A stretch of DNA of 64,000 nt, from contig QHVT01000007.1 in NCBI GenBank assembly GCA_003223645.1, positions 106,531-170,530 on the forward strand, in the 5' to 3' direction. The notes beneath the pieces were generated by a model. The model did not search any database, was not told the DNA's origin, and worked only from the letters and a program-made list of their open reading frames with translations. The stretch comes from Acidobacteriota bacterium (GTDB taxonomy: Bacteria > Acidobacteriota > Thermoanaerobaculia > Gp7-AA8). Every line of letters begins with the position of its first letter. Positions within the stretch are counted from its first letter, which is position 1. Both the position numbers and the translations under genes were made by a program. This document shows positions 3,042 through 43,462 of this stretch, in pieces.

Positions 3042-5033
3042 TCAAGTGACGTCGACTTCGATCCGCGCGGGCGTCGATCCCGTTTGCGCGAACCACGTCA
3101 CTTTGTTAGCGACGCAGTCGAGCTCGATGATGTAGCGGCCGGGATCGAGCGGCGCGAGGTCGAACGAGATGGTCGTCTCTTCCTGCGGCGCGAGCGCGCG
3201 ATCGAGCGGCTGCCACGCGTAGTCGAAGCGGATCAGCCGTCCGTTTTCGGCGTACAGGTGCGCGCCGAGGACGACGCCGCCGTAGAGAACGTCGGAGGGG
3301 AGCCACTTTGCACGGCCGATATTGCGCACGGTCGCGCGCACCGTCATGCCGGTGATCGATGCGTCGATCGATGCGCGCAGGCCCGCGGGATGACGACTGT
3401 CGATTTCTTCCGCGCCCGCCTTTGTCAGAAAGAAGTCGCGGACGTTGTGGAGAAACGCGCGGGTCGACTCGGCCCAGCGCGCGTACGTTGCGCCGGCGGC
3501 GAGGAGGTCGTCGAACTCGGCGAGCGAGACGTGGAAGGGCGGGACGTTGTAGGCGGCAATTTTCAGATCGGCGAAGCCGAGGCGCTGCGCGGCGTCCCAG
3601 ATCGCGTGAATGTCGACGTCGTTCTCGACGACGCCATACGTGCGCATCTCGTACTGCGACTGCGCGGTCGTCGAATGCAGCGGCCCCGGCTCTGCGAATG
3701 CGGCGATGCCGCCGGGCTTCAGCACGCGTCCGAACTCGCGCAGCACTTCTTCCGGATTCGGCGCGTGATGAAACGCGTCGAAGCAGACGATGCGATCGAC
3801 GCTCGCGTCGGGAAGGTCAATGTGTTGTCCATCGAAGACGAGGAAGCGCGGCTCGGGACGCGTGCCGATCGGCGGCTGCCGCGCGAACAATTCACGCGCG
3901 ATGTTCAGCGCGGTGGGGGAGACGTCGAGCAGGATCGTGTTGCATCCGAGCTGCGCGAGGAAGCGCGAGAGCCATCCCGTGCCCGCGCCGTATTCGAGCA
4001 CGGTCATTCCGGGAGTGAGGTTCAGTCCCTGGATCGTGACGCCGAGGTTGATCAGCAACTGCGGCGCATCCTCGGCGCGCGAGAACGGCTTGGCGAGGTG
4101 ATCTTCCCAGTCGCTGAGCGAAGCGAAATACGCCTCGGCGGTCCGGTTGAGTTCTTCGATCGACGTGGTGGCGATCATCTGTTTTACGTCGATTACTTGT
4201 GGAGCGGCGGCCGCCCCCGGCCGCCGAAACGGAACGGCGTCGATCGCTGGGACGTTTGTTTTTTCGGCGGCCGAGGGCGGCCGCCGCTCCACAGACTCGA
4301 GCTGCGCCCGACGTTGCGCGTAAACGATCACCGAATCCAGATCCCCATGCTTCGAGAAAACCACGTGCGGCGAGTCGAATCCCGCGTCCTGCAGAATCGC
4401 GAATACCTCGTTGATGTCGTAGGTGTTGCTCTCAATGAACGGCTCCGCCGCCGGTTTTCGTCGCAACACGTTGATCGCGGCGTTCACGCCCGGCACGCGT
4501 GCGCGCGCCTTGCGTGAGACGGAAACGAGCGGCGAGAGCTCCGCGCGATACGGAAACTGGAACACGCCGGTGCCGCCTTCGCGCACGCGCTTCGTCAGCG
4601 TGCGCAGCAGGTCGACGCCTTCGCCTCGCGGCAGTCGCTGCAGGACAAGAAAGCAGTTGACGAGATCGAACGTCCGCTCATGGAGCTCGCGTTGCAGCTC
4701 GACGTTCGTCACGCCCGCTTTCGCGATGTGCGTGCGCGCGGTGTCGAGCATCGACTGCGAGATGTCGACGCCGGTGACGTTCGCCGCGCGGCGTGCAAAC
4801 GGAATGAGCAATCGTCCGACGCCGCATCCGTACTCCAGCACCGTCTCCGGAGCGAAGTGCGGCGCGACGCGCGCACGCACGATGCCGTACAGCTCCGACA
4901 CGTACGCTTCTCCGCTGTCGAAGAACTCCGCCTCGGCCGCGGCATCGAAATGTTCGCGCAGGTAGCGCGCGTGTGTGAGGACCGCGAAGTACGGCTCGCG
5001 CGCGGCGAACGCGTCCCACGCGGCGATGTTCAT
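3042..5033 (-). CDS. fused tandem class I SAM-dependent methyltransferase (two MTase domains plus ~170-aa C-terminal domain); linker encoded by a palindromic repeat element
   Basis: Two glycine-rich SAM motifs (VLEYGCGVGRLL and VLEYGAGTGWLSRFL; DRIVCFDAFHH...LKPGGIAAFAEP); continuous 663-aa ORF; residues ~246-280 (ERRPPSAAEKTNVPAIDAVPFRRPGAAAAPQ) are encoded by repeat at 4198-4293. Confidence 0.7.
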   Translation of the reverse strand: MNIAAWDAFAAREPYFAVLTHARYLREHFDAAAEAEFFDSGEAYVSELYGIVRARVAPHFAPETVLEYGCGVGRLLIPFARRAANVTGVDISQSMLDTARTHIAKAGVTNVELQRELHERTFDLVNCFLVLQRLPRGEGVDLLRTLTKRVREGGTGVFQFPYRAELSPLVSVSRKARARVPGVNAAINVLRRKPAAEPFIESNTYDINEVFAILQDAGFDSPHVVFSKHGDLDSVIVYAQRRAQLESVERRPPSAAEKTNVPAIDAVPFRRPGAAAAPQVIDVKQMIATTSIEELNRTAEAYFASLSDWEDHLAKPFSRAEDAPQLLINLGVTIQGLNLTPGMTVLEYGAGTGWLSRFLAQLGCNTILLDVSPTALNIARELFARQPPIGTRPEPRFLVFDGQHIDLPDASVDRIVCFDAFHHAPNPEEVLREFGRVLKPGGIAAFAEPGPLHSTTAQSQYEMRTYGVVENDVDIHAIWDAAQRLGFADLKIAAYNVPPFHVSLAEFDDLLAAGATYARWAESTRAFLHNVRDFFLTKAGAEEIDSRHPAGLRASIDASITGMTVRATVRNIGRAKWLPSDVLYGGVVLGAHLYAENGRLIRFDYAWQPLDRALAPQEETTISFDLAPLDPGRYIIELDCVANKVTWFAQTGSTPARIEVDVT
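4198..4293. repeat. palindromic element family B, copy 1 (inside dual-MTase CDS); copy 2 at 16172-16244
   Basis: tgtggagcggcggccgcc-cccggccgccga ... cggcggccgagggcggccgccgctccaca with ~30-bp arms; second copy has a shorter centre. Confidence 0.8.
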
Positions 5034-5377
5034 GCCTTCGCTGCGAACGCCGTCATCGCCTCGTCTTCACTCTCGTAGACCTGAAACATCGGAAGGAGAT
5101 TGGTGAGGCGGAGGGTCTTGGTCACGCGGTCCTGCGGCTTGAGCAGGCGCAGCGAAGCGCCGCGGCGTTGCGAGTCGCGGAACGCCTGCACCAGCTCGCC
5201 GAGGCCGTTGCTGTCGATGTAATCCATCTCGGAGAGATTGAGGAGAATCTTCTTCCCGCCGGAGTCGAGAATCTCGGCGATGATCTGCGGCAGCACCGAG
5301 TCGCCCACCCCGATCGCGAGCCTCCCGCGAAAGTCGACGATCGTCACATCCTTTGATTTGCGTACGGCAATGTCCAT
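5030..5377 (-). CDS. STAS-domain anti-sigma-factor antagonist (SpoIIAA/RsbV-like)
   Basis: 115 aa; IVDFRGRL...LNLSEMDYIDSNGLGELV STAS signature with conserved Ser; stop overlaps start of downstream dual MTase. Confidence 0.8.
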   Translation of the reverse strand: MDIAVRKSKDVTIVDFRGRLAIGVGDSVLPQIIAEILDSGGKKILLNLSEMDYIDSNGLGELVQAFRDSQRRGASLRLLKPQDRVTKTLRLTNLLPMFQVYESEDEAMTAFAAKA

Positions 5378-12765: not shown

Positions 12766-13341
12766 TCACCACAAAGTCCGCGCGTACTCCATCACGTCAG
12801 GAAAAAAGATCTCGAATCGTCGCTCCAGCTCCGCGCGCGCGTCGACGAGCAGATGCGTGGCCGGCGCGAGCTTCGGCTGTCGCGAGAACCTTCGCGAGAT
12901 GCCTCGCAGCGCGGTCTCGATGCCTTCGAGCGTGCGATACGACAGCAGCCACTGCTGATCGCGCATGCGCGGATAGACGACGCGCAGCATTCCGGGAAGC
13001 GTCGCCTCGTGCGGATCGAGCCGCGCGTACGTGCGCGAGAGAAAACTCTCGAGGGACTCGCCGGCGAACTCGTCGAAGCGAGAGGCGAGGAAGTGATCGA
13101 TGAAGATGTCGGCGATGACGCGTGCGTAGTGGCCGTGCTCGGCGGCGATGACGCGGCGGAAGTCGCCGACGTGCGGATGCGCGTCGGTGTACGCGTCGAT
13201 CTTTCGATGCTGCACGACGCCGGCGCGGATCGCGGGCGGCAGCTCGTCGCCGAGAACGCCCTTCACGAAATCGCCGGACAAGTTACCAATCAGCGAATCT
13301 GTGGACGAACCGGCCAGAAAAAGATGAGCCAGGTGATTCAC
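12766..13341 (-). CDS. acpH: acyl carrier protein phosphodiesterase AcpH
   Basis: MNHLAHLFLAG N-terminus and overall AcpH-like HD-related pattern (HRKIDAYTDAHPHV). Confidence 0.75.
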   Translation of the reverse strand: MNHLAHLFLAGSSTDSLIGNLSGDFVKGVLGDELPPAIRAGVVQHRKIDAYTDAHPHVGDFRRVIAAEHGHYARVIADIFIDHFLASRFDEFAGESLESFLSRTYARLDPHEATLPGMLRVVYPRMRDQQWLLSYRTLEGIETALRGISRRFSRQPKLAPATHLLVDARAELERRFEIFFPDVMEYARTLW

Positions 13342-13433
13342 CTGAAAATAATCTTGCCTTCATCCGGCTTTTCCTGCACAGTAATTTCGCGTCTCGTCCA
13401 AAGACGTCCAAAAATTTCAGGGGAGCGTCCCGG

Positions 13434-14693
13434 TTGCCACGAGTCTTCGTCCGATTTGCGGTCGTGCTCATCGTCGTGGTTGGTTCTCTCCGCGCACGCG
13501 CGGAAGTGATCTCGACTCACTGCAGTGAATCGGAGGTGGCGATCGACGCGACGCACAACGTCGCGCGGCTCGATCGCTGCGGCGCGGACGCCGAGGGCGA
13601 GCTGCTCTGGTACCTCGACCGCATCGACCAGATCGGCGGCGTGCTCGACGGAGCGTTCGACCGCACGAGCGGCGGCGCCGGCAGCGTCATCTACGTGATG
13701 GACACCGGCGTGATGGCGTCGCACGGCGAGTTCGCGCGCGCCGGCGGCAGCCGCGTGATCGCCGGCATCGACACGACGTCGTCGGTCGACATCGGACGCT
13801 CGCGCTGCACGAGCGGAAACAAGGCGACCGCGCCGTGCTTCGAAGGATTCGAAGAGTTGTCTTCGGCGTCGCACGGCACGAGCGTCGCGTCGATCGCGGC
13901 CGGCAACCACATCGGCGTCGCGCCCGGCGCGTCGATCGTGAGCGTGAGGATCATGAACGAGCGCGGTCTCGCCACGACGCGCACGTATCTCGACGGACTC
14001 GACGGCATCATCAAGCACGCATGGAATCCGTCGACGCCTGCGTTCCGCACCGCGGTCGTGAACATCAGCGGATGGGTGCTCGAGCGGCTGGCCGGCACGA
14101 GCCAGAGCGGTCCCGTCGTTTCGTACGCGGCGGTCGAGAAGAAAATCCGCGACATGATCGGCGGCGTCGACGCGAACGGCAATCCCGATCCGAACGGCAA
14201 GCGCTTCTTCTTCGTCGTCGCCGCGAACAACGTCGACGGCGGCTGCGGCTCCTCCGGCGTCATCGATCGTTTCCCCGCAACCCTCGGCACCGCGATCAAC
14301 GGCGTCATCACCGTCGGCGGCATGACCGCGAGCAACACCGCGTGGAACGGCTCCTGCCGCGGCGGCGTGGAAGTGCTCGCGCCCGCGCAGTCGATCTTTT
14401 CCGCGACCATCACCGGCCCGCAGGATTATCGCGGCCGCCGCCCATTCCAACGCTCCGGCACTTCATTCGCCGCGCCGATCATCTCCGGCATCGCCGCGCG
14501 TCTCCTCGGCGAGCGTCCCGACCTCACGCCGCAGCAGCTCGAGTCGTGGATCGAAGCGACGCCGTCACGCGTCGTGAATCCCGACGCGACGCTCGCGAAC
14601 GGCAAGGTCGCATACGTTCGCTCGATCGCGGCGCCGGTTGCGCCCGCGGCGCCGACGCTCGCGAGCGCCATGCGCGCGGCGCTCGAGCCGTAG
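13434..14693 (+). CDS. secreted subtilisin-like serine peptidase (S8 family)
   Basis: Signal peptide; catalytic triad motifs VIYVMDTGV (Asp), HGTSVASIAAG (His), GTSFAAPIISG (Ser). Confidence 0.85.
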   Translation: MPRVFVRFAVVLIVVVGSLRARAEVISTHCSESEVAIDATHNVARLDRCGADAEGELLWYLDRIDQIGGVLDGAFDRTSGGAGSVIYVMDTGVMASHGEFARAGGSRVIAGIDTTSSVDIGRSRCTSGNKATAPCFEGFEELSSASHGTSVASIAAGNHIGVAPGASIVSVRIMNERGLATTRTYLDGLDGIIKHAWNPSTPAFRTAVVNISGWVLERLAGTSQSGPVVSYAAVEKKIRDMIGGVDANGNPDPNGKRFFFVVAANNVDGGCGSSGVIDRFPATLGTAINGVITVGGMTASNTAWNGSCRGGVEVLAPAQSIFSATITGPQDYRGRRPFQRSGTSFAAPIISGIAARLLGERPDLTPQQLESWIEATPSRVVNPDATLANGKVAYVRSIAAPVAPAAPTLASAMRAALEP

Positions 14694-16252: not shown

Positions 16253-18463
16253 TTACGCCGCCGCCGCCACCGTCCCGATCGCCGCGAGCAGCTCCGTCAG
16301 CTCGTACGGCTTCATCAGCGCGAGGATCCGTTTCTTCGCGCAGCCGATCGTCAGCTCGACGTGTCCCGTCGACAGAACGATCGGCAGGTCCTCGTGCTCG
16401 ACGCGCAGCAGTCCCACGAGATCGATTCCGTTTCCATCCGGCAGGTTCACGTCGATGATCGCGACCTCGGGTTGAATGCGGCGTGCGGCCTCGCACACTT
16501 CGGCCGCGCAGCGCACCCACGTCGTCTCGTATCCCTCCGCCGTCAGCAGCGCTTCGAGCCCGGCGCCGACGGAGTGATCGTCTTCGACGAGGAGGATGCG
16601 TTTCACTCCCGTGGTCGTGCAACCGAGCGGTTGCACGACCGGAGTCGCGGACTCCGCGGCCGGGACGAGCGCGTGAAATGCGGCTCCGCCTTCCGGCCGG
16701 TTCTCGACCGTCAGCGCGCCGCCCTGCCGCTCCATGAGGCGCCGCGCGATGGCGAGACCGAGTCCCGTGCCGTTGCGCTTCGTCGTGTACAGCGGCTCGA
16801 AGATGCGGTCCATCATCTGCGGCGCGATGCCGGAGCCGCTGTCGGCGACGGTGATGCGCAGGAACTCGCCGTCCGCGCCGAGGGAGACGCCGACGTCGAT
16901 CGTGCCCGCAACGGTGATCGCTTCGCGCGCGTTGAAGACGAGATTCGTGATGACCTGCTCGAGATGTTCGCGGTCGCCGCGCAGGAATCGCACGCGCGAC
17001 TCGATCGAGCTGCTGAGCAAGATCGACGGCGGCAGCGCTGCGCCGAGCTGTGCGAGAAATGCCGGCAGCCAGCGCCGCACGTCGACGGTGAAAAGCTGCG
17101 GCTCTTTCGGATTGGCGAAGCGCAGGATCTCCTGCGACGCGCGCTTGCCGCGGCTGATCGCGCGGCGGATGTGGTCGAGCGCGTCGTCGACGCCGTGGGC
17201 GGCGGGAACGTTGCGCGCGATGACTTCGACGAACGGCTGGATGCCCATCAGCACGTTGTTGAATTCGTGCGCGAGCGACGCCGCGACCTGCCCGAGGCTG
17301 TTGAGCTGCTTCGCCTGTTCGAGCTTGCGCGCGATGTTGCGCTGCTCCGTAACGTCGCGCGCCATGCCGATCGTGCCGGACATCACGCCGTCGACGAAGC
17401 GCGGCTGCAGCGACACTTCGACCGTGACGACTTCTCCCGATCGCGCGGGCAAGTCGTACTCGCGGATGACCCGCGAGTCGTTGGGCGCGTGTTGCAGCGC
17501 GGGCGGCATCGCATGCGGCGTGAACAGCTCCGTGAACGGACGGCCGATCCATTCTTCGATGCCATATCCGGTGCTGCGCTCGAAGCTGCGGCTCAGCGAA
17601 ACGAAGCGGCCTTCGCGATCGAGCGTGAAGAGGATGTCGGTGACGTCTTCGACGAGCTCGCGGTAGCGCTGCTCGGATGCTTCCAAGGCCTGCTGCGCGC
17701 GCACCTTCTCGGTGATGTCGCGCGCGATGACCTGCACGGCGTCGCGATTGCCGTAGCGAAGCGGCAGCGCGGCGACTTCGACGTCCAGCAGCGATCCGTC
17801 GACGCGAACGATGCGCTCGCGAATGTACGGAACGCTCTCGCCGGCATTGAGCTGTCCGAAGCGATCGCGTACATCCTGCTGATTGCTCGGATCGACGAAC
17901 GACAGGACGGTCCGGCCGATGATCTCCGATTCGCTCTTCGCGCCGAGCAGCTGCACGAACGCCTGATTGACATAGGCGAACGTTCCGTCGACGTGGACGC
18001 CGATGCAGTCGGGCGACAGCTCGACCATCCGCCGGAAGTTCTCGCGGCTCTCCCGCGACGCCTCCTCGGCCGCATGCTCGCGCGTGATGTCGACCATCAC
18101 GCCGAACAATTCGACCGCCACTCCGTCCACGGAATGCACGTTCACGTAGTCGCGCAGCCACACGTCGTGGCCGTCGGCGGCGACCATGCGATAGACGAGC
18201 TCGTGATCGCGGCAGGCCAGCGTCTCGTTGTGGCAGAGCATGGCGACGTGCTCGTCCTCAGGGTGAAGATGCGAGACCCAGAACTGTGGCTCGTTCAGCC
18301 AGCGCTCGACCGGATATCCGAGAAGCGTCTCGGCTGCCGGGCTCACGTACGTGAACTTGAAATTTTTTGCGGACGCGGACCAGGCAATGGCCGGCATCGC
18401 ATCGAGCAGACGCGAGCGGCGCTCCTCCGGGCAGTTTGTGGACTGGTGCATAGCAGTAACCAT
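16253..18463 (-). CDS. hybrid sensor histidine kinase: 3x PAS - HisKA - HATPase_c - C-terminal receiver
   Basis: 736 aa; repeated PAS cores, SLAHEFNNVLMGI H-box, NLVFNAREA, DSGSGIAP, GTGLGLAIARRL, then RILLVEDD...DVNLPDGNGIDL receiver. Confidence 0.85.
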   Translation of the reverse strand: MVTAMHQSTNCPEERRSRLLDAMPAIAWSASAKNFKFTYVSPAAETLLGYPVERWLNEPQFWVSHLHPEDEHVAMLCHNETLACRDHELVYRMVAADGHDVWLRDYVNVHSVDGVAVELFGVMVDITREHAAEEASRESRENFRRMVELSPDCIGVHVDGTFAYVNQAFVQLLGAKSESEIIGRTVLSFVDPSNQQDVRDRFGQLNAGESVPYIRERIVRVDGSLLDVEVAALPLRYGNRDAVQVIARDITEKVRAQQALEASEQRYRELVEDVTDILFTLDREGRFVSLSRSFERSTGYGIEEWIGRPFTELFTPHAMPPALQHAPNDSRVIREYDLPARSGEVVTVEVSLQPRFVDGVMSGTIGMARDVTEQRNIARKLEQAKQLNSLGQVAASLAHEFNNVLMGIQPFVEVIARNVPAAHGVDDALDHIRRAISRGKRASQEILRFANPKEPQLFTVDVRRWLPAFLAQLGAALPPSILLSSSIESRVRFLRGDREHLEQVITNLVFNAREAITVAGTIDVGVSLGADGEFLRITVADSGSGIAPQMMDRIFEPLYTTKRNGTGLGLAIARRLMERQGGALTVENRPEGGAAFHALVPAAESATPVVQPLGCTTTGVKRILLVEDDHSVGAGLEALLTAEGYETTWVRCAAEVCEAARRIQPEVAIIDVNLPDGNGIDLVGLLRVEHEDLPIVLSTGHVELTIGCAKKRILALMKPYELTELLAAIGTVAAAA

Positions 18464-18534
18464 GTAATTCCTTAGTGATTGATTGTCGTAGTCGAGCGCC
18501 TAATCAGGAGAGACGCGCATAAATTCCGTTCGCA

Positions 18535-18563
18535 TCGCAATGTTGCAAACCGCATTGCACGAG
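18535..18563. promoter_or_regulatory. inverted repeat GCAATG-N11-CATTGC (contains TTGCAA), candidate enhancer/UAS upstream of sigma54-type promoter
   Basis: cGCAATGttgcaaaccgCATTGCac located ~50-75 bp upstream of the -24 element. Confidence 0.3.
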
Positions 18564-18608
18564 TCTGCCGAACGGCAGGAAGCTCGTCCGGAAGAGTGCA
18601 CATCCATC

Positions 18609-18624
18609 TGGCATTTTTGGTGCT
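18609..18624 (+). promoter_or_regulatory. sigma54 (RpoN)-type -24/-12 promoter
   Basis: TGGCATttttgGTGCT: GG and GC spaced exactly as in consensus TGGCACG-N4-TTGCW; followed by strong SD AGGAGGAGG (18661-18669) and ATG 18676. Confidence 0.5.
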
Positions 18625-18675
18625 TCTCCTTCCAGCAGTAGTTGCAGACGTTGTTGTTGTAGGAGGAGGCTCGAG

Positions 18676-19134
18676 ATGCCATACGTCGCATTGGAATGGG
18701 ACCACAAGATTGCGAAACCGGTCGTGAAATGGCTGGTCGTGAAATGCAAGAGTGTCGGGCGGAAATTCGGAGGTCCTCAGGCGCTGCCGCCGCGCCGCGA
18801 CATCGCGTATTTCGTCGATCCGCACACGGCTGAGCGCGATGCCAAGGCGTTCGCCGAGTACAAAGCGCGTCAGGAAAAAGGCGAGAGCGAGGAGAGTCTC
18901 GGCACGTCCGAGGCGTATAGCAAACGCCACGCGGCGTTCGGTTGGGACCACAACATTTTCAATCCGCTGATTCAGTGGGCCGTCCTCGAATGGAACGGCG
19001 AGAACCCGGCCGGCGAGAGCGTGCGCAACGATGTCGCGTACTTCCTCGATCCCGAGACCGCGGAAGCGGACGCGAAAGCGTTCCGTGTGCTGCGGGACCG
19101 GTTGATGATGGAGCAGTTCGCGGCGGCGAGTTGA
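18676..19134 (+). CDS. hypothetical small protein composed of two tandem homologous halves
   Basis: Half 1 EWDHKIAKPVVKWLVVKC...DIAYFVDPHTAERDAKAF versus half 2 GWDHNIFNPLIQWAVLEWNG...DVAYFLDPETAEADAKAF; strong SD; lower G+C than neighbours. Confidence 0.6.
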   Translation: MPYVALEWDHKIAKPVVKWLVVKCKSVGRKFGGPQALPPRRDIAYFVDPHTAERDAKAFAEYKARQEKGESEESLGTSEAYSKRHAAFGWDHNIFNPLIQWAVLEWNGENPAGESVRNDVAYFLDPETAEADAKAFRVLRDRLMMEQFAAAS

Positions 19135-19192
19135 GTTCTCGTGACGTTCCGAGCCGTCTCGTGCGACTCGGACCGTCACGTGCCGAATAAAG

Positions 19193-21310
19193 CTACTTAT
19201 CGGTCCGCGGCGCGAGCAGGTTCTTGATCTGATCCGCGCCGACGCCGAGCGCAAACAGCGCGACGAGGCCTGTTACGAAATCCAGCTTTGCCAGTTGTTC
19301 CTTTGCGCCCGCGAGCAGGCCGAGGAGGACGACGAACAGGGCGACCATGAGCCGGATCCACTCGATCCGCGTGCGCGCGCCGATCAGATCGCCGCCGGCT
19401 TTCTCCACGGTCACGGTGACGGGATCGATGGGGAACTGATGATTGTCCCGGTCCGTCAACGTCGGCGTTACGCTGAATTTGCCGGACCGCGCGAAATAGT
19501 GCGACACGCGCCAGCCGTCCGCGTGGTAGCCGTCGCCGAAAGACCAGTGGCAGGAAATCGTCTGGATGGCCGCCGAGGCGTTCAGCGCCGGGTCGGTGAC
19601 ATCCAATTCGAAGGTGACGAGTGAATTCAGAGCCGGCCGTATCGGATGAAACGACAGGCGCACCTTCTTGTCCTTGAATGCCTGCTCCAATTGTCCGGGG
19701 ACTCCGGGATCTTCGCGCAACTGGCGCGCCAGCCGGACTGCTTCGAGGTATGCATCGAGCGAATGCGTGCGCAGCAGCTTGACGAGCTCCGGCTGCGCGG
19801 ACACCGGCACGCTCACGGCGACTTCCATTTTCGTCACGGCGTAGTCGAGCTTCCAGAACCCAACCGGCCATCCGACGTCTTCGATCTTCGTGACCTCCAA
19901 CGCGGGCGCCATCACTACCGCGGACTCGACAAGCTCGTCGAGCTTGAGGGCCGTCTTCCGCTTCTGTAGGTTCTGTGCGCGCGTGAACACTTCCTGCGTG
20001 AGCTTCGGATCTTCCGCGGCCGCGCCCAGGCTTTGTTTCGCCTGATCGACCGCGGTCTCGACGGCGCGCAGCTCATCTTCCGTGAGCTGCCCCTGCTCGA
20101 GCCGCTCGACCGATTTCTGCAACAGCCTTCTGTTGCGCTGCAGGATCGTCGGCCCCAGTCTCATCGCTCCGCTTTCCCATTCGCGCTCGATGTCGATCAG
20201 GAGGAATTCGATTCGTTGTGTCAGCTCGATGAGGCGCTCCAGCGTCTTCACCTGTTGCAGGCACTCCGCTGCCAACGGCGGAAAATCGAGACTCGTCACG
20301 GCGCGCGAGTCGAGCAGCGCCCGCAATTGGTTGCGCCGGACGCTGAGCAGGACGCGCAGGGTCGAAGGCGTGAGGCGCAGCTGATGAATCTTCTGCGTGA
20401 GGTCCTCGATTTCCCCTCGGACGTCGTTCTTCTTGAGCATGTTCGGGACCCAGTAGGTGAGGTAGAGCGAGGTGATGCCGCCGAGGAACAGGAAAATGAG
20501 AATCAATCCCATTTGCGGGAAGTCGCGGCGCGCTCCTTCACCCGTCGTGCGCTGCAGTTGCACCGGAATCTCTTTCGAGACCCAGTATTCTCCGATTCCG
20601 GCAGGCCCCCGCGGGACTGCGCGCAGGAGCAGAGTGCCCGGCGCCTGCGGCGCCTGCAGCGTCCCTTCGAGCCACCCGAGGACACCGTCGCCCGGCTCGC
20701 GCGGGATGTCGATGTCGACCGTGGCATTCGGACGAAGCAGCGGTACGCGCCCGCGCGCGAGCTCGCGGCTTCCCTCGCGAAGCGACCAGACGAACGAGTG
20801 CGTCATCGGATCCGGGTTCAGGAGCGTGACGCTGCTCCGTTGGCCCTGGATCTGGTGAATCAGGAACGGTTGCTTCCCATCGAACCCGAGCGGCGCGACG
20901 TTGAAGGCAAACACTCGCTTCAGCACGTGCAGTTCGCCGATCGGTGCCGCGTCGTTCCGGATCTCCGCCTTCGCGCGGCCCGGCTCGGTGACGTTCGACA
21001 GCTCTACGGCGATGAGCTCGGTCATCCCTTTTTTGATCAGCTTCGCCGTGGGCTTGGCGACGATCGGCAGCGGCTCCCCGCCCGGATCCGCGAAGAACGG
21101 TCCAATCGTGAGCTGAGGCGTAATGTCTTTCTTGCTGTTGTTCTGGAGAGTGATCGTTCCTGTCGCGGCCGGCGTATCGGACGCGATGACGATTTCGGAT
21201 GTGATGACGATGAGCGGTTGCGGCGGCGTGGCCGCCCGGTTGGTCGCCGCGGCCGCGTGGACAGCGCTGCTCAGCACTGCGATGCACAAGCTCGCACGGA
21301 ATCGGTTCAT
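19193..21310 (-). CDS. large hypothetical envelope protein: signal peptide, long helical/coiled-coil region, PKD-like module, C-terminal TM
   Basis: Start at MNRFRASLCIAVLSSAVHAAAAT (second Met of track ORF); heptad-like charged segment (EIEDLTQKIHQLRL...), CHWSFGDGYHADGWRVSHYF resembles PKD WxFGDG motif; C-terminal hydrophobic helix. Confidence 0.55.
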   Translation of the reverse strand: MNRFRASLCIAVLSSAVHAAAATNRAATPPQPLIVITSEIVIASDTPAATGTITLQNNSKKDITPQLTIGPFFADPGGEPLPIVAKPTAKLIKKGMTELIAVELSNVTEPGRAKAEIRNDAAPIGELHVLKRVFAFNVAPLGFDGKQPFLIHQIQGQRSSVTLLNPDPMTHSFVWSLREGSRELARGRVPLLRPNATVDIDIPREPGDGVLGWLEGTLQAPQAPGTLLLRAVPRGPAGIGEYWVSKEIPVQLQRTTGEGARRDFPQMGLILIFLFLGGITSLYLTYWVPNMLKKNDVRGEIEDLTQKIHQLRLTPSTLRVLLSVRRNQLRALLDSRAVTSLDFPPLAAECLQQVKTLERLIELTQRIEFLLIDIEREWESGAMRLGPTILQRNRRLLQKSVERLEQGQLTEDELRAVETAVDQAKQSLGAAAEDPKLTQEVFTRAQNLQKRKTALKLDELVESAVVMAPALEVTKIEDVGWPVGFWKLDYAVTKMEVAVSVPVSAQPELVKLLRTHSLDAYLEAVRLARQLREDPGVPGQLEQAFKDKKVRLSFHPIRPALNSLVTFELDVTDPALNASAAIQTISCHWSFGDGYHADGWRVSHYFARSGKFSVTPTLTDRDNHQFPIDPVTVTVEKAGGDLIGARTRIEWIRLMVALFVVLLGLLAGAKEQLAKLDFVTGLVALFALGVGADQIKNLLAPRTDK

Positions 21311-23897: not shown

Positions 23898-25064
23898 TCA
23901 CGACACTTTCTCGCTGATCGGCTCGTACGATATCAGGAGATCGCTAAGAATTTTTCTGGCTGCGTCCGCGTCGATTTTCTTGAGTTTCCGTTGCGCAGCT
24001 TCAGCCAGCACGACTCCGCAGATCTCGATGATCTGTCGCGGTAACCCCTGGCTCAGTTGATAGGCGTAATCGACATAATCATCAGTAAACGGGATGATCT
24101 CGTCCCTCTTTTGCCCATCTCGCGCTTCGGACATACGACTCACGATAAGCCGTCTAGCTTCGTCGGGAGCCAACTCTGCCGGCATTTCGACCACCTCGGA
24201 CGCCCGAATGCGTGCAAAGAAAGGGGTTATTCCGACTCCAGATTCCCCCCGGCCGCCTTCCATCATGACCTGCTGCCTCAGTCGATGCCAGTAGTCTGGA
24301 GTGGCGGCCATGAGAATCAACAATGTCGCAGCATTCGCGCCTTTTGAGAAGAAATCCACTTGCTGGTCCCAAAGATGCTTCAGGCTGTCGAGTACCGCCA
24401 CTCGTTGCGCCCTGGGAAGGGCGTCAACGTACTCGACTTCGTCGATGAACATCGCGATTGCTGTGACGCCGGCGGCATGTAACACCAGTTGAAGCGCCTG
24501 GATCACCGCAATGGCATCGTCCGACGTCCTAATTTGAAGCGTTTCGGCGATACCTGCCGCTTCAGCCTCTCTGCGAAGAATGCGGCTGCCGATCAACACT
24601 TTCCGAGCGACGGCCGCGGCATCAGGGCGCGTCAACGCAAGCAGCAAACCAACAAAGGGGCGAAGAGCGGACGGCCACCCAGCCTTAGGCGCCGCTACAT
24701 TTCGCAAGATCGGAACCAACTCGTTTTCGATATCCATGCCTCGGACGAAGAGGCGCAAAACGAGGCTGCGAGTAAAATCCCTCTTCTGTTCTGGGTCAAC
24801 GAGACGTATTGGCCCCAACCCCAACACTCGTGATTTCGTAGCTGGTTGAAGCGACCGGGCTAGCTGCCACAAGAGAAAGCTCTTGCCTGAGCCGTACGTT
24901 CCCAAGAGCACAGCATTTACTGGAGATCGCGACTGTTGCGCAAAGTTCACGATCTGCCGCAACCGCGTCCACTCAACATCGCGGCCAATTCGCTGTACGT
25001 CATAACGACCCAGCTCGAAAGGTTGCCCCTTAAGTCGATAGAGATCGAATGCTTTTGTAGACAT
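23898..25064 (-). CDS. P-loop NTPase (AAA/ORC-like ATPase), terminal gene of block 1
   Basis: Start MSTKAFDLYRLKG (ATG 25064, GGAGG 13 nt upstream; track ORF extends further 5' by overlap with next gene); Walker A LLGTYGSGKS, Walker B AMFIDEVEYVD. Confidence 0.6.
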   Translation of the reverse strand: MSTKAFDLYRLKGQPFELGRYDVQRIGRDVEWTRLRQIVNFAQQSRSPVNAVLLGTYGSGKSFLLWQLARSLQPATKSRVLGLGPIRLVDPEQKRDFTRSLVLRLFVRGMDIENELVPILRNVAAPKAGWPSALRPFVGLLLALTRPDAAAVARKVLIGSRILRREAEAAGIAETLQIRTSDDAIAVIQALQLVLHAAGVTAIAMFIDEVEYVDALPRAQRVAVLDSLKHLWDQQVDFFSKGANAATLLILMAATPDYWHRLRQQVMMEGGRGESGVGITPFFARIRASEVVEMPAELAPDEARRLIVSRMSEARDGQKRDEIIPFTDDYVDYAYQLSQGLPRQIIEICGVVLAEAAQRKLKKIDADAARKILSDLLISYEPISEKVS

Positions 25065-25080
25065 TGGCGAGGCCGCCTCC

Positions 25081-26019
25081 TTAGTGTTTACTAGTACTCT
25101 GCTTATCTGTAGTGGGCTTGAAGCGCACCGACACGAAGCCGGCGTACATATTTCCGAGCTGCAGGCCGTCGCGAGCAGGACCGCTAAATGGCGAGAATGA
25201 AACAAAATGCTCCGTAAGGAGCGTAGGTGCCTGCCGAATGATCTCGTCAAGTTGGGTATCAGATAGGAGAGTGCCGCAGTGTTGAAAGATGCGCCCAAGA
25301 TCGTCACGCAGCACGTTGATAGGCAGATACAGTTGCGTCCCAATCCTGCGAGTTGCCTTTGAATATGCTTCGAGAAGGGCTTCGCGCCGTGCTTGATTGG
25401 ATAGCGACGCAGCCGATAAGTTCGTACCTGGTGTTCTGAGAGCTTCAACGTGGCGACGATTAGCAGTCCAGATTACACCTCTATCCGTCGGGTTTTCCCT
25501 AATTACCCCAAAGAAGATCAAGTAACCGCCCCATTTCCCAAGCCGGTCAAGCGTACTGATAGCTTCGTCTCCAGTCAGGCCGAGCCTCTGCTCGATGAAT
25601 CGTCTCAACATAGTTTTGCGCCTCTCAGCCTTATGGGATGCCTCAGCAAGCCAGCCGACCAAACCGACGCGAGCCGCGTCCAGCTCGAGGAGATGCCGCG
25701 CCATGAGTTGACGTGCGTTCTCATCGTCTGCGGTTGCTATCGCTTCGGCGTAGCGTGTGACCTGTCCAGATCGAAGTGTGCCCTTAAAAAGCCGCAATTC
25801 GACAAGGCTCGGAAGCACGTACGCATTCAGGAGTGTTCTCGGCGGAATGTCTGGACGTAAGGCGACAAGTGCTGTACGGCGCCCTTCTGGCGTGCGGTGG
25901 TCCAGCAGTACGCGCAACGCCGGCAGAGTCAGGTCCGGTGGCATCTTCAAAACGGGGACCGTGAGAGGCGTCTTCGGCGGCCGACGTTTTGGCTTCGCTT
26001 TGCTTGCACTCTTCATGGC
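25081..26019 (-). CDS. hypothetical protein (block 1, gene 3)
   Basis: Start MKSASKAKPKRRPPK; no recognised motif; 7-nt overlap with upstream gene. Confidence 0.4.
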   Translation of the reverse strand, partial: AMKSASKAKPKRRPPKTPLTVPVLKMPPDLTLPALRVLLDHRTPEGRRTALVALRPDIPPRTLLNAYVLPSLVELRLFKGTLRSGQVTRYAEAIATADDENARQLMARHLLELDAARVGLVGWLAEASHKAERRKTMLRRFIEQRLGLTGDEAISTLDRLGKWGGYLIFFGVIRENPTDRGVIWTANRRHVEALRTPGTNLSAASLSNQARREALLEAYSKATRRIGTQLYLPINVLRDDLGRIFQHCGTLLSDTQLDEIIRQAPTLLTEHFVSFSPFSGPARDGLQLGNMYAGFVSVRFKPTTDKQSTSKH

Positions 26020-27152
26020 AGGCCTGCAGTTGAAGCTGCCGGAGAATGTGGCGCGGGCAATAACGGTGTGGTGCCCGGATAGCCACCCTCCCAGCAATGA
26101 TGACTATATGGGCAACGGCTACACCGCTGAAGGTCGCTGGGATGCGGTGGCACAGAGCCTGACCGAAGTATTGTCAGAGCGGAGTCTCGCTGGGTAATCC
26201 AGCGTTGGCGCTGTTGATCATCGGCCCGTATCCGATAAATTCGGTGCGACCGTAGTTTCCCTGCGGTCAAGTCGAGATCGATCGACAGTATGAATGCAGT
26301 GTTGATGCGCCGAGCCAAGGCAAATTCAGCAAAAATTGCATAACCAATCGCGACGCCCTCGTGAAACTGTTCATACGGGCCAGTCTTTAGGTCTCCGACT
26401 AACGTGACTGCGTAAAGGAAATCCGGGCACACACCGTTCCGTACGCCGAACACTCGGGCAGGGTACCTTTTGTTATCGAGGGTCACCCCAGTCTGAAGCC
26501 TTGTCAGGGCTGCCCGGGCCTCAGCCATCCAGTTGCTTGACGGCGTGAAATAGCCGAGCCCGAATCGGCCGCGGCGGCAGCGACGAAGATAGGCAATTAG
26601 AAGCTTCGTTTCGTGCCGGATTAAATCAACGATCGCCGCGAGGGTATTTGCAATCAGGTCTGCGCCACCCTCGCCGGCCATGCGCTCGGCGAAGTCATCA
26701 AGTGTGAGGTTTCGGAAATCAGGATGCTTTCCCGGGTATGTCCATTCAGAAAGAAGCCGTCGCCGTGCCGCGTCCTCCGCGGCAGTGATGATATTTGTTT
26801 CAAGATCCCTGAAGCTGACGGCTCGCCCGGTTCGGACGGACTTTTCGAATGCGTCATCCAGTTGGTCCATGCCGATCGTGTGAAGATCGACCAAAACCGG
26901 ATCGACAACTTTGCCGATTACTGAACGCGGCCATGAAGGTGTTTCGAGCTTGAGAACCTTTTCGAGGTAGATATCACGACCAGTCGGACAATATCTGGCC
27001 GACAAGCCTGTAATCGACACACCCTCGGTTCCGACCGCGGCCCGGATCTGCGATTGCTCGCCTGCATAACCGCGAAGATCCGGGGAAACTGGCAGCGGTC
27101 GATAATGCCTAAGCGTGCCGACAGCTCCGAGTTCGATTGCGACGCTAAACAT
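26013..27152 (-). CDS. putative PD-(D/E)xK nuclease of Cas4/RecB-like type with C-terminal C-x2-C-x5-C (Fe-S-like) cluster
   Basis: CPDFLYAVTLVGDLKTGPYEQF (D...D-L-K core), C-terminal CSRCPYSHHC plus N-terminal Cys (RYCPTG); 9 nt downstream of MTase stop. Confidence 0.45.
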   Translation of the reverse strand: MFSVAIELGAVGTLRHYRPLPVSPDLRGYAGEQSQIRAAVGTEGVSITGLSARYCPTGRDIYLEKVLKLETPSWPRSVIGKVVDPVLVDLHTIGMDQLDDAFEKSVRTGRAVSFRDLETNIITAAEDAARRRLLSEWTYPGKHPDFRNLTLDDFAERMAGEGGADLIANTLAAIVDLIRHETKLLIAYLRRCRRGRFGLGYFTPSSNWMAEARAALTRLQTGVTLDNKRYPARVFGVRNGVCPDFLYAVTLVGDLKTGPYEQFHEGVAIGYAIFAEFALARRINTAFILSIDLDLTAGKLRSHRIYRIRADDQQRQRWITQRDSALTILRSGSVPPHPSDLQRCSRCPYSHHCWEGGYPGTTPLLPAPHSPAASTAGLP

Positions 27153-27161
27153 CTAAGCCTT

Positions 27162-28628
27162 CTAGCTCACAGCCGGCGGCTTCCGGAGTACCAGAACGTG
27201 TTCGTGGGTGATAACGCCGGCGGTTGGATGCCGTTTTGTAAGTAAGCCACGTGACGGAATTTTGTTGCGAATACGCAGAGTTTGGGCGAAACCTAGCTTC
27301 GAGGCTAGTTCGGCGAGAATCGCCGCGTTATCAAGGAGGTGTCCCCGTACGTGATTGTTGCCGATGACAAAAACTACGTGCCCTCCTGGCTTAAGCGCCG
27401 CGTAGCAGTTGCTAACCACGACGTTCATGTCGCGGACATACTTGCTTATAATAGCGGCACGATACCGATCCTGCCGGAGTACTGACGTGATAGTTTCGTC
27501 GGCGCTCGGTGCGCCGGTCGGTTCCAACAGACTCGCCCATTCACGCTCAGGAACGCGCTCTGTGCCTATCTGCAGACGGTCGAGAGCAGACTCGTCCTGA
27601 CCATTGGCTGTATATCCAAGCACGAAAAGCTCTAGCCTGAGAGATCGAGTGTAGCGCTGAGCGTTAGCGTAGGGCGGAGAAGTAAGTATCAGGTCGATTC
27701 CGGAGACGGAGTCACCTGTTGGGTGGCCTAGGCGGCCAGCGCCGATGTAAGGGGCCGTGGCAAAAGTCCGTGCGTCCGCACCGTGGATGGTGTCGTTGGT
27801 CACGGGAATGGTTGTCGCATCGACCCAGGCCCGCAGTCGCGAAGCGTTGCTTCGGACCACGGTGTCGAGGATCGTCAAGACATCGGCGTCTTGGCGCTCT
27901 CGAAGATTTGCACGAAGCTCCCTTCGGACTGCAGCATCGCGGAATCTTCTCGGGTCGATTTTCACGGGAACGCTCACGCCAGGGTCGGCAAGAGCCACTT
28001 GCCTGACAACTGACGATGCGGCAACCAGGAAGAAGTCGCGGAGATTAGGGTCGCGTAAGCCTTCCATTGCGCGGAGCACGCGAGCGAGACGCCGCTCCAC
28101 CGATGGCGTAAACCAATGGCGTTTGTTTGGGAAATCTGGCAAGCCAAGTCGAGAAGTATCGGCGTTAAAACGGGCGACGATCCGCAGCCAAGAATCGAGA
28201 ATCGCGCGGCTTTCCAGCGGTGAAGTCTTCACCTTCGCGATGAGGCGCGCGAGCGGATTGATTTCGAGACCGACCGGGTGCATCGGGTGCACCGGGTGGA
28301 TCGGTGCCTCCACGAGAACGGTTCCACAGCCCGCAAAGGGGTCCAATAGCCGACCGAAAGGAACGGCGACGCCTCGCACCGCCAAGAAAAATAGTGGGAT
28401 ATACGGGGTCAGCCGACCAGGGTACCGGTGGAGCCGGTGAGTCATATGGTCGCCGCGCGCGGTCCAATCAGCACAATGGCGCCGGAAGTCGAAGTTTAGT
28501 GACCTTCCCGTTGCTTCGAAGCGGTCGCAGAGTCTACCGTACGCATCGGTCGCACGATCAGCGATCTCTTCTGGCTGTAAGCTCGAGCGAGTCATCCGAA
28601 ACGCCCCTTTTGAGGCTGAAGTCAGCAT
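27162..28628 (-). CDS. SAM-dependent amino-methyltransferase, probably DNA N6A/N4C MTase (motif I before motif IV)
   Basis: LLDPFAGCGTVLVEA (motif I) and LILTSPPYANAQRY (motif IV S-P-P-Y); paralog of 36580..37851; resemblance to RlmL/Trm11 m2G RNA MTases means DNA versus RNA target is unresolved. Confidence 0.6.
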   Translation of the reverse strand: MLTSASKGAFRMTRSSLQPEEIADRATDAYGRLCDRFEATGRSLNFDFRRHCADWTARGDHMTHRLHRYPGRLTPYIPLFFLAVRGVAVPFGRLLDPFAGCGTVLVEAPIHPVHPMHPVGLEINPLARLIAKVKTSPLESRAILDSWLRIVARFNADTSRLGLPDFPNKRHWFTPSVERRLARVLRAMEGLRDPNLRDFFLVAASSVVRQVALADPGVSVPVKIDPRRFRDAAVRRELRANLRERQDADVLTILDTVVRSNASRLRAWVDATTIPVTNDTIHGADARTFATAPYIGAGRLGHPTGDSVSGIDLILTSPPYANAQRYTRSLRLELFVLGYTANGQDESALDRLQIGTERVPEREWASLLEPTGAPSADETITSVLRQDRYRAAIISKYVRDMNVVVSNCYAALKPGGHVVFVIGNNHVRGHLLDNAAILAELASKLGFAQTLRIRNKIPSRGLLTKRHPTAGVITHEHVLVLRKPPAVS

Positions 28629-29072
28629 CTGTATTGGTCCGCCGCTCGCTCATTGTCGCTCGCATCCCTCGAACGGCAAAGACTCCTGGATATCACCACG
28701 GGTAGGGACGACCAGCCCAGCCGCGGCGGTCGACGCACCACGGTACAACATCATGGCCCTGCCGCGCGCAGCGTTCGCGTCCGCCGCTTTTGCGGTTGCC
28801 TCGCGGTCGAGGAGCGCGATCGCGCGCTACGCGAGCTGCGGCTCTCAGCAACGGCGACGACCAGGCGATGATCTGCCGCGCGACATCCGGTTTGTGGTGG
28901 ACCTCTTCCGCGACGGCGTGCGTGTCGGCACGCCGCGGACGGTGCTTACTTGCAGGCGCCCATACCGAGGCCGAGGAGGAGGACGAGGAAGGTTCCCTTC
29001 ATGGCCTGATTCCTTCCAGCCGCCGGCGCTTCGCAGGCGCCGGGTTCGAGGGTCCTCGCCGACGAACGAGAA

Positions 29073-29094
29073 CCATGTCCAGTATTGGACATGG
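29073..29094. promoter_or_regulatory. perfect 22-bp palindrome CCATGTCCAGTATTGGACATGG in ~800-bp non-coding region
   Basis: Exact dyad symmetry, operator-like. Confidence 0.3.
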
Positions 29095-29427
29095 CTCTAC
29101 CAGTCGCGGATTCGCCCGTCGCCCCCGGCCACGACGGTACGATCACCTCGTGACACGCGACGAATACCGGCGTCGCATCGCGGAGTCGCAAAGTGCCCCG
29201 TTTTTGTGCGTGGAACACATACGTAAATCCGTGGAACATTCTGTTATTAGCTCGCTATGCCCGACTCTCGGCGAGCGTGGCCGCTTCTCCGTTAGTAAGT
29301 ACACCAGTGACCTGTGCCGGCTCGATGTCGGAGACTACCCCCGGCGACCTCCGGCCGGTGCTCCATTGGCTCGACGACAGGCCATGTGGCGGTGCGGAGA
29401 GTCCGCACCGCCGCGCGGGCAAGGAGC

Positions 29428-33183: not shown

Positions 33184-33285
33184 TGTTAACCAAATCCCGT
33201 CTCATGGTGGTGTAGGACAGGCTTTCCAGCCTGTCCCCCCGGAGGCGGGCTGGAAAGCCCGCACTACGCCGGGGCTGTTAACCAA
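33184..33285. mobile_element. family C palindromic element bounded by exact 20-bp direct duplication TGTTAACCAAATCCCGTCTC (MITE-like insertion with target-site duplication)
   Basis: tgttaaccaaatcccgtctc at 33184-33203 and again at 33266-33285, bracketing the 60-bp palindrome in the desaturase / beta-lactamase-family divergent intergenic region. Confidence 0.6.
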
Positions 33286-33312
33286 ATCCCGTCTCGCGGG
33301 TTGAAACGACAT

Positions 33313-34980: not shown

Positions 34981-35390
34981 TTCCCGACTATCGAATCGAC
35001 AACCTGATCGCCGTCGCCACGTCGATCCTGTTCCTGGTCCTGACGGGCGGCGGACTGCTGTTCGTCATCCGCCGCCGGATGAAAGAACAGCACGAGCTGC
35101 GGCGGGCGCTCATCGAGAAGTTGTCGGCCGAGGAGTTGATCCGGCTGGCGGAAAGCGAGGGGGGAAGGGGATGGCTGCGCGACGTGCTCGTCGGCGTGCG
35201 CGATCGCCACGCCGCGGTCGAGCGCGCGCTGCAGGTGATCTTCGCGGGCGTCGCGTGCGGGATCGCGAGCGGCTATCTCCATCAGAAGCCGCTCGGCGCG
35301 GCGGGGATGATTCTCGTCGCGGCCGGACTCGGACAACTCGTGGCGACGCTGATCTTCAACCGCCGCGACAAGGCGAGCGATGAGAAGTGA
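34976..35390 (+). CDS. small hypothetical membrane protein
   Basis: MIPDYRIDNLIAVATSILFLVLTGGGLLFVI...; ATGA overlap with upstream gene and GTGA overlap with downstream sigma factor. Confidence 0.4.
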
Positions 35391-35842
35391 TCGGCGCCGG
35401 CGACTTCGAGCGCTTCTATCGCGACACGCTGCCGCGGCTCGAGAAGTTCGTCGCGCGACTCGCGGGCTCGCGTGCGGCGGCCGAGGAGATCGTCCAGGAG
35501 ACGTACTACCGGTTTCTGCGGTCGCGATTCGAAGGCGGGTCGGACGAAGAGCGGCGGCGGTATTTGTATCGGATCGCGGTGAACCTCGCGAAGAACCTCT
35601 GGTCGCGGCAGCGGAGCGAAGAAACGATCGAGCTCGTCGCGCATGCAGACGCGTCAAACTCGATCGACGTGAACGGCGTGCTCGCGCGCATGGCGCCGCG
35701 CGAGCGCGCGCTGCTGTGGCTCGCGTACGCGGAAGGGTGTTCGCATCGCGAGATCGCTGAGGTGATGGACGTGAGCGCGCTGAGCGTGCGCGTATTGCTC
35801 TCTCGCGCACGGAAGCGATTCGTGGAGTTGATGGATCGATGA
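35387..35842 (+). CDS. ECF-type sigma-70 family sigma factor
   Basis: Region 2 (YRFLRSRF..., RYLYRIAVNLAKNLWSRQR) and region 4 HTH (CSHREIAEVMDVSALSVRVLLSRARKRF). Confidence 0.8.
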   Translation: MIGAGDFERFYRDTLPRLEKFVARLAGSRAAAEEIVQETYYRFLRSRFEGGSDEERRRYLYRIAVNLAKNLWSRQRSEETIELVAHADASNSIDVNGVLARMAPRERALLWLAYAEGCSHREIAEVMDVSALSVRVLLSRARKRFVELMDR

Positions 35843-36138
35843 ATGACGATCAACTGAAAGCCGCATTCACCGCGGAGCTGCAACGCGACGTGCAACTGAC
35901 GCGCGCCAGCGCGGCCGATCTCTGGAATCGCGCGCGCCGCGACGAGATCGTCGAGCAATACGCGCGCGACGCCCGCTCGCGCCGCATCGCCGATCGCGTG
36001 TTCGGCGTTGTCGAATTGTTCGCAGCCGACGTCGCGGCCGCGGCGCTGATCCTGCCGGCGGGAGGACTCGTGATTGCCGTCATCGGCGCCGCGATCATCC
36101 ACATGGCGGGAACGCTGGCGTTGATGGTGCGCGCGTGA
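35839..36138 (+). CDS. putative anti-sigma factor / small membrane protein downstream of ECF sigma
   Basis: 99 aa, 4-nt overlap with sigma gene, C-terminal TM segment. Confidence 0.35.
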   Translation: MNDDQLKAAFTAELQRDVQLTRASAADLWNRARRDEIVEQYARDARSRRIADRVFGVVELFAADVAAAALILPAGGLVIAVIGAAIIHMAGTLALMVRA

Positions 36139-36165
36139 GATTCATCGCGTGGACATCAGCAGGGC

Positions 36166-36483
36166 TTGGACCGTGCGGCGGAACACTTCCTGCGGGATTG
36201 CTATCGGCGGAAGAAGCCGGCGCGTGGGAAAGACTTCGCGCAGTCGCTGGACCTGACGCCGGAGTACTTCAGCTGGTTGGCGGCGCAAGCTCTCGGCGAG
36301 TCGCTGCACGTGTTCCTGCGCAAGAAGCAGGTTGAGTACGCGGCGCGGCTGCTCCGAAGGACGCCGCTATCCGTCGAAGAGATCGCCGTGCGCAGCGGAT
36401 TCGGGACGCGATCGGCAATGCACCGCTGGTTCGTGAAGGTCCACGGGATCGGTCCAGCAGCATTTCGGGAGCGGAAGAAATGA
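36166..36483 (+). CDS. AraC-type HTH domain protein (only C-terminal DNA-binding domain; possibly truncated regulator)
   Basis: EEIAVRSGFGTRSAMHRWFVKVHGIGPAAFR second-HTH signature of AraC/XylS family; only 105 aa. Confidence 0.5.
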   Translation: MDRAAEHFLRDCYRRKKPARGKDFAQSLDLTPEYFSWLAAQALGESLHVFLRKKQVEYAARLLRRTPLSVEEIAVRSGFGTRSAMHRWFVKVHGIGPAAFRERKK

Positions 36484-36657
36484 GATCGGCCGCGATCCGC
36501 TGTTCGACGTGATGACGATGTTAGCGCGCTTCGCGGAATGGGATGAACTGGCCGGTGCTTGCGTCACGAGCGATTTTGAGTGTCGGCATCGCGCGATGTG
36601 ATCGCGAGAGCGGCACGATACAATCCGCTCGCGCGATCTCTTTCTGCGCGACGAGCG

Positions 36658-43183: not shown

Positions 43184-43189
43184 ACCCGC

Positions 43190-43430: not shown

Positions 43431-43462
43431 CCGCGAGCGATTGTGTGGCTTAGACTCGCCGC

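Follow-up and report, generated by a model that had tools for sequence, protein, structure and literature searches.

Putative back-to-back ECF-type promoters between a hybrid PAS kinase gene and a small tandem-repeat protein gene of Thermoanaerobaculia

The DNA analyzed in this report, called the window here, is a 64-kb stretch of contig QHVT01000007.1 from a member of the Thermoanaerobaculia (Acidobacteriota). A gene for a hybrid PAS sensor kinase and a gene for a small protein made of two homologous halves diverge within it from an intergenic region of 212 nt. This region, like its counterparts in related loci, carries two bipartite motifs, each with a fixed internal spacing and each oriented toward its own gene, and the gene pair itself is conserved. 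The reading that we favor, with moderate confidence, is that the region is a pair of back-to-back promoters of the extracytoplasmic function (ECF) type through which the hybrid kinase and the small protein are regulated together. A first-pass annotation of the same DNA had proposed a sigma54-type promoter in front of the small gene. Its broader idea, a promoter region read by an alternative sigma factor, is likely to be correct; the specific assignment to sigma54 fares less well, as described below.

The comparative set consisted of 138 related loci, referred to here by L numbers, which gave 116 to 118 distinct upstream regions. Two words were the most over-represented among 108 unique upstream regions: GAAATAA, present in 75 of them (at most 11 in shuffled sequences), and TATTCC, present in 64. 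The pattern TGGCA...TTGC was not conserved across the upstream regions. GAAATAA is located 57 to 100 nt (median, 80 nt) upstream of the small-gene ATG, and when the loci are aligned on it, TT appears at +24/+25 in 79% and 85% of them, with an information content of 1.0 to 1.2 bits where background columns have about 0.1 bit. Three further positions, A+9, T+12, and C+14, are also conserved on this alignment, and a CTCATCC flank lies upstream. TATTCC is GGAATA read on the minus strand; it is found on the kinase side in 64 to 66 loci and is followed by TTA at the same distance toward the kinase gene. The two motifs can be superposed as G(G/A)AATA(A/C)-N16-17-nTT, with TT at positions 25 and 26 in 40 of the 75 sites on the small-gene side and in 43 of the 66 on the kinase side; in most of the others it is no more than 1 nt away. 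Both motifs occur together in 54 loci, where the gap between them ranges from 13 to 105 nt. Such a variable gap indicates two independent outward-facing elements, one per gene, and it rules out the possibility that the two blocks form a single palindromic operator.

An unanchored expectation-maximization search of 116 upstream regions recovered the same motif, at more than 10 bits in 93 of the 116 loci. In the window this search placed the motif at 18583-18616, with a score of 14.1 bits compared to a family median of 20.2, and a scan with the resulting matrix returned the small-gene site as the best plus-strand match in the whole window (14.9 bits). The kinase-side sequence, CGGAATT-N17-ATTAGG (18528 to 18499), scored 12.6 bits with a matrix built from 64 orthologous kinase-side sites; it ranks second over the whole window and first among the intergenic matches. 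Both kinase-side boxes are kept in most close relatives. The features of the intergenic region and of the two genes that flank it are the following, with positions counted from the first nucleotide of the window.

16253-18463, minus strand: hybrid sensor kinase gene, 736 aa, with three PAS domains, HisKA, HATPase_c, and Response_reg (Pfam)
18499-18527, minus strand: predicted kinase-side ECF-type promoter, GGAATT (18527 to 18522), N17, ATTAGG (18504 to 18499)
18537-18558: dyad GCAATG-N10-CATTGC pointed out in the first-pass annotation, probably not a functional unit
18565-18578: GC-rich hairpin or dyad CTGCCG-AA-CGGCAG, between the two predicted promoters
18583-18616, plus strand: predicted small-gene ECF-type promoter, the window copy of the family-wide 34-nt motif
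18609-18624, plus strand: sigma54-like string TGGCAT-TTTTG-GTGCT, i.e., TGGCATTTTTGGTGCT, overlapping the −10 and start region of the predicted small-gene promoter
18661-18669, plus strand: Shine-Dalgarno sequence AGGAGGAGG, 6 nt upstream of the ATG at 18676
18676-19134, plus strand: small tandem-repeat protein gene, 152 aa, with two homologous halves

In the arrangement that we favor, two outward-facing ECF (group 4 sigma70) promoters would lie within the 212-nt region. The minus-strand element GGAATT-N17-ATTAGG (18527 to 18499) would drive the hybrid PAS kinase gene, with a predicted start about 30 nt upstream of the kinase ATG. The plus-strand element GGAAGA-N17-ATT (18590-18615) would drive the small gene: here CTCGTCC is followed by GGAAGA at 18590-18595 as the putative −35 box, a 17-nt spacer, and ATT at 18613-18615 as the putative −10 box. 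Transcription would begin at about 18621-18625 and give a leader of about 50 to 55 nt ending in AGGAGGAGG, which bears out the strong Shine-Dalgarno sequence claimed before the ATG at 18676; orthologues have AGGAG-type sequences at the same place. One ECF-like sigma factor would read both promoters, and with the same sigma factor at both, expression of the kinase and of the small protein would be turned on jointly. We infer the roles of the motifs as −35 and −10 elements, the ECF nature of the sigma factor, and the start positions from this conserved layout. A scan of 18000-19600 found no sigma70-type −35/−10 pair and no intrinsic terminator.

A third match to the family motif is present in the window at 13337-13374 on the plus strand (TGAAAATAA...CTTTT, 11.8 to 13.0 bits). 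It sits in a 92-nt gap before a subtilase (Peptidase_S8) gene at 13434-14693, and this gene may be another member of the same regulon.

The sigma54 (RpoN) promoter of the first-pass annotation would use TGGCAT as its −24 element and GTGCT as its −12 element, start transcription at about 18635, and rely on an activator encoded elsewhere; this start is only some 10 to 14 nt from the one predicted for the ECF-type promoter. We regard a sigma54 promoter here as quite improbable, also in the form in which it may have replaced, or may overlap, an ancestral ECF-type promoter in the window lineage. The string itself is present as described, TGGCAT-N5-GTGCT on the plus strand at 18609-18624, with GG and GC at the canonical −24/−12 spacing and its end 52 nt upstream of the ATG at 18676. 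It resembles sigma54 promoters (TGGCAC-N5-TTGCW) in having GG and GC 10 nt apart, TGGCA and TGC, and a correctly oriented position upstream of a gene. No second match of this kind is present in the 64 kb: the degenerate pattern TGGCAY-N5-KTGCW occurs once in the window compared to 0.11 expected (11/100 shuffles), an optimistic expectation because the pattern was written around the site. An independent position-specific scoring matrix was built from 29 intergenic sigma54 sites of Salmonella validated by chromatin immunoprecipitation on microarrays (PMC3844500), and this enterobacterial matrix was applied to an Acidobacteriota host. The scan, which the first-pass annotation had proposed as a check, gave a divided answer. 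Scored over the core positions, the site reaches 14.6 to 15.1 bits, which is within the validated range (training minimum, 12.5 to 12.9) and ranks first in the window, with 0.65 to 0.8 equally good sites expected by chance. Scored over all 18 positions, it reaches only 8.3 to 11.3 bits, below every one of the 29 validated sites (minimum, 16.3 to 16.9; leave-one-out minimum, 14.2), and about 4 equally good chance sites are expected. The site in the window also differs from validated ones in single letters: it has a T after TGGCA(C/T), where all 29 have G or A, and a G replaces the T two bases before GC.

Conservation among the relatives likewise cuts both ways. Eleven loci, with the window included, make up the window-type promoter set (L127, L131-L133, and L135-L140). 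In favor of sigma54, TGGCAT-N5-GTGCT is identical in the window, L131, L133, L135, and L139, apart from two spacer positions that vary, and L127 has a variant in the same register, CGGCAC-TTCTC-ATGCA. Against it, the near-invariant GG has become AG or TG in L132 (TAGCAT...TTGCAT) and L136 (TTGCAT...TTGCAT), with the rest of the block kept; L137 has the wrong spacing, L138 and L140 are without GG, and GG-N10-GC is found in none of the 75 orthologous loci that have the GAAATAA motif. Counted from the second G of GGAAGA (18591), the string occupies positions 19 to 34, which correspond to the −10 and the predicted start region of the ECF-type promoter. The near-invariant bases of the window-type loci are GCAT(T), that is, the −10 of the family, which reads GCnTT more widely, e.g., GCGTT in L014 and GCCTT in L017; the start region TG(G/A)TGC is also seen in these two loci. 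A-type loci such as L014 (CTGCGTTCTGGTGCG) have TGGTGC after the −10 two bases closer than in the window, and so no GG-N10-GC arises there. The GCnTT −10 and the TGGTGC start region, conserved for another reason, would therefore supply most of the sigma54 core letters; judged from the aligned sequences, the window clade is set apart only by the extra G and the spacing. The sigma54-like string would then be a by-product of a conserved −10 (GCATT) and start region (TGGTGC), which the spacing of one lineage brings into the form GG-N10-GC.

Nine loci reach or exceed the training minimum in their sigma54 core score, and all nine are without GAAATAA (9 versus 0; Fisher P = 6e-5), with none on the reverse strand. 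This association fits a sigma54 promoter, but these loci belong mostly to one clade and so represent few independent events. Over the whole family, sigma54-like strings were found in 6 of 108 loci compared to 1.64 in shuffles; we rejected this enrichment, since allowing one more mismatch makes the two strands equal and most of the matches come from one clade or lie in other registers. The strings of other lineages (the L111 group, L015/L018, and L123) are in other registers relative to the conserved motif. With the GG-N10-GC pattern absent from the 75 GAAATAA-type loci and GG lost in L132 and L136, the sigma54 assignment is left unsupported.

The search for an activator bears on the same alternative. 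Six-frame translation of the 64-kb window has no GAFTGA, ESELFG, Walker A, or RpoN-box signature, i.e., no sign of a bacterial enhancer-binding protein (bEBP) or of rpoN, and Pfam scans found no Sigma54_activat domain among the 33 window proteins scanned. The divergent hybrid PAS kinase/receiver gene, said from the start to be without an AAA+ activator domain, indeed has none. One related locus, L025, contains a bEBP fragment (67-930; ESELFGH...GAFTNA, with a C-terminal helix-turn-helix [HTH]) whose end is 7 nt away from the 3′ terminus of the kinase gene, a neighborhood not seen in the window. Since L025 is a Thermoanaerobaculia locus, sigma54 systems probably exist in the class, which counts in favor of a sigma54 promoter.

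The inverted repeat upstream, suggested earlier to be an enhancer-binding-protein site, does exist, in the form GCAATG-N10-CATTGC at 18537-18558 and not with N11 at 18535-18563. Its proposed function found no support. One perfect 6-nt inverted repeat with a loop of 3 to 20 nt was found in the 212-nt region compared to 0.81 expected (P = 0.48), and the right arm is not conserved in relatives; on these grounds the dyad was rejected as an activator site. The window thus departs from sigma54 promoters also in having neither a nearby activator gene nor a conserved upstream activator site. The left part of the dyad, AATGTTGCAA (18540-18549), contains the palindrome TTGCAA and is kept in six close relatives. 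The GC-rich hairpin at 18565-18578 is located just upstream of the small-gene −35. By eye, relatives have other self-complementary sequences at this position: GCTCTT...AAGAGAGC in L133, CTGCC-GGAA-GGCAG in L031, and GCTGAGC...GCTCAGC in L127.

Two further explanations of the conserved blocks were weighed. The G(G/A)AATA blocks could be binding sites of a transcription factor, possibly a response regulator that partners the hybrid kinase, which would draw RNA polymerase with the housekeeping sigma factor to a weak promoter on either side. The conserved block of about 20 nt, with its flank and its spacer positions, is more than a −35 element needs, and the two blocks are mutually inverted; both points favor this explanation. 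Each block, however, keeps a fixed distance of 17 to 18 nt to the TT on its own side, in spite of the 13 to 105 nt between the blocks; no TATAAT-like or TTGACA-like pair was found in the region, and the motif closely matches a validated ECF consensus. We consider a transcription factor of this kind unlikely. Much less credible still is that the conserved block is part of the 5′ leader RNA of a start further upstream and acts through RNA structure, e.g., by hiding the Shine-Dalgarno sequence or the start codon. The minimum-energy fold of the leader does pair CUUCUCCU with AGGAGGAG, and TGGCAT (18609-18614) is the exact reverse complement of ATGCCA at 18676-18681 (the start codon plus a Pro codon), probably by coincidence. 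This fold is no more stable than those of shuffled sequences (z = 0.17), and so the structured-leader reading was dropped; an Rfam scan of 18300-19300 gave only sub-threshold noise, no promoter candidate was found upstream, and an RNA element would leave unexplained the twin of the motif on the other strand before the kinase gene. A sigma32-type reading of TTGAAA...CCCCAT was ruled out by eye because its −10 does not fit.

The ECF-type reading has its own difficulties. The −35 of the window, GGAAGA, departs from the GAAATAA of the family, and the −35 boxes of two close relatives, L131 and L135, are poor. The −10 is nTT(A), and ATT in the window, compared to the canonical GTT of sigmaH/R/E promoters. 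The conserved spacer positions and the CTCATCC flank are unusual for a plain sigma site and may hint at a regulator bound there. The counts given above come from orthologous sequences that share ancestry and therefore overstate their independence. As for the sigma factor, the family motif was not found near the ECF sigma gene of the window (35387-35842); a gene fusing a receiver to an ECF sigma factor, found in two related loci, is not in the window or in most of the loci, and in these two the region upstream of the fusion gene is without the family motif.

Only through that fusion gene is the module directly linked to an ECF-type sigma factor, and the gene is restricted to two loci, L029 and L098; no other ECF sigma genes were found in the related loci examined. 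In L029, the fusion gene (564-1418) is immediately followed by a second small-gene copy and then by a kinase paralogue, all on one strand. The L029 fusion protein has a receiver at residues 4-114 followed by Sigma70_r2 and r4, and the PhyR family model matches only the receiver part. In L098, the same fusion gene (3446-4294, minus strand) follows the small gene at a distance of about 460 nt, on the opposite strand. The sequence TGGCAG-N5-TTGAA is conserved upstream of the fusion gene in both loci and is sigma54-like, with GA in place of GC. The ECF sigma gene of the window encodes 151 aa and overlaps the end of an upstream membrane-protein open reading frame; in the region 35387-36483 it is followed by a 99-aa open reading frame with a hydrophobic tail, which encodes a putative membrane protein and candidate anti-sigma factor, and then by an AraC-type HTH gene.

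Actinobacterial ECF promoters offer one comparison. The Streptomyces coelicolor sigmaR and Mycobacterium tuberculosis sigmaH/E promoters are of the same type as those of Corynebacterium glutamicum sigmaH. The validated consensus for C. glutamicum sigmaH is GGAAt-N18-19-GTT, individual validated promoters include GGAATA-N17-GTT and, for rshA, GGAAGA-N17-GTT, and sigmaH/E promoters read GGAAC-N17-18-cGTT (PMC10012870). The motif described here shares with these the GGAAT(A) −35 with its AA core and the distance of 17 to 18 nt to a short T-rich −10 trimer, and both variants in the window family, GGAATA-N17 and GGAAGA-N17, are among the validated sigmaH sites. Signalling or stress genes are driven in both cases. 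The small-gene side differs in preferring GAAATAA over GGAATA, and there are additional conserved positions in the spacer. The sigmaH/R/E promoters are those of Actinobacteria, whereas the host here belongs to the Acidobacteriota and its promoters are predicted from sequence conservation.

The alphaproteobacterial general stress response, in which PhyR, NepR, and EcfG act with PAS/HWE kinases on promoters of the form GGAAC-N16-17-CGTT, offers another. It resembles the present case in combining an ECF-type motif, a PAS sensor kinase, and a protein with receiver and sigma domains (here, the one in L029 and L098), and both systems encode a small protein of unknown fold alongside. The differences are considerable: the fusion described here has the receiver before the sigma domains (r2 plus r4), the reverse of the order in PhyR; no NepR-like gene was seen in these loci; the promoter spacing and −10 are different; and, of about 130 loci, only 2 have the fusion gene beside the module.

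The small gene is a duplicated-domain gene, as had been proposed: the two halves of the 152-aa protein align with 42% identity (E = 5e-16). More than 500 homologues have 75 to 92% identity, and all of the named ones are from metagenome-assembled genomes of Thermoanaerobaculia or Acidobacteriota; an identical 152-aa protein is encoded on soil metagenome contigs with the same neighbor genes. The protein has no sequence match in Pfam, NCBIfam, or the PDB, and when 1.84 billion representative proteins were searched with a profile of its family, only 28 clusters (50% identity) matched. Copies with 57 to 62% identity are found in Legionella quinlivanii and in two cyanobacteria. The context of the Legionella locus gave no regulatory hint.

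Of 111 related loci, 110 have a kinase homologue upstream of the small gene and in divergent orientation. In the two cyanobacterial loci, the small gene is also paired with a homologous kinase gene, which is convergent and has 42 to 45% identity in the N-terminal PAS region (in L049, 3001-3450 with the kinase at 3582-5350; in L050, 666-1106 with the kinase at 1441-2574). The occurrence of the pairing in both Thermoanaerobaculia and cyanobacteria, for so small a family, suggests a direct functional partnership between the kinase and the small protein.

A bolder possibility, which we put forward tentatively and think rather unlikely as a whole, is that these genes form an undescribed signalling module present throughout Thermoanaerobaculia, in which the kinase and the orphan, very highly conserved tandem-repeat protein are co-induced from the back-to-back ECF-type promoters and the intergenic region is the control hub. 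The sigma factor could then be a receiver-fused ECF sigma, as in L029 and L098, phosphorylated by the kinase; the kinase, or else the sigma factor and RNA polymerase, would have a new partner in the small protein; and the cyanobacterial pairing would reflect a direct physical interaction. In a weaker variant, the window lineage would be in the course of exchanging an ECF-type promoter for a sigma54 one in front of an orthologous gene.

Two observations elsewhere in the window are recorded here for completeness. At 33184-33295, the 20-nt sequence TGTTAACCAAATCCCGTCTC is present as a perfect direct repeat, its two copies 92 nt apart. Between them, in an intergenic region flanked by divergent genes, is an imperfect palindrome of 30 nt. 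The stretches from about 23900 to 29240 and from 36580 to 43480 have a third-position GC content of about 0.6, compared to about 0.85 in the rest of the window, and their genes include a BrxC/D-like ATPase gene (23898-25448) and two DNA methylase genes (27162-28628 and 36580-37851). These stretches are probably horizontally acquired defense or restriction islands.

Taken alone, a sigma54 or ECF promoter before a small gene would be routine. The case does show how a good-looking −24/−12 match can arise inside another conserved promoter. Thermoanaerobaculia are abundant in soil, and to our knowledge no mapped promoters have been reported for them; a promoter motif common to more than 100 species of the class would be a concrete handle on an alternative sigma regulon. 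The motif also ties a sensor kinase to a protein family that has no relatives in Pfam, NCBIfam, or the PDB. The more interesting leads are the conserved pair of kinase and small protein and the receiver-sigma fusion.

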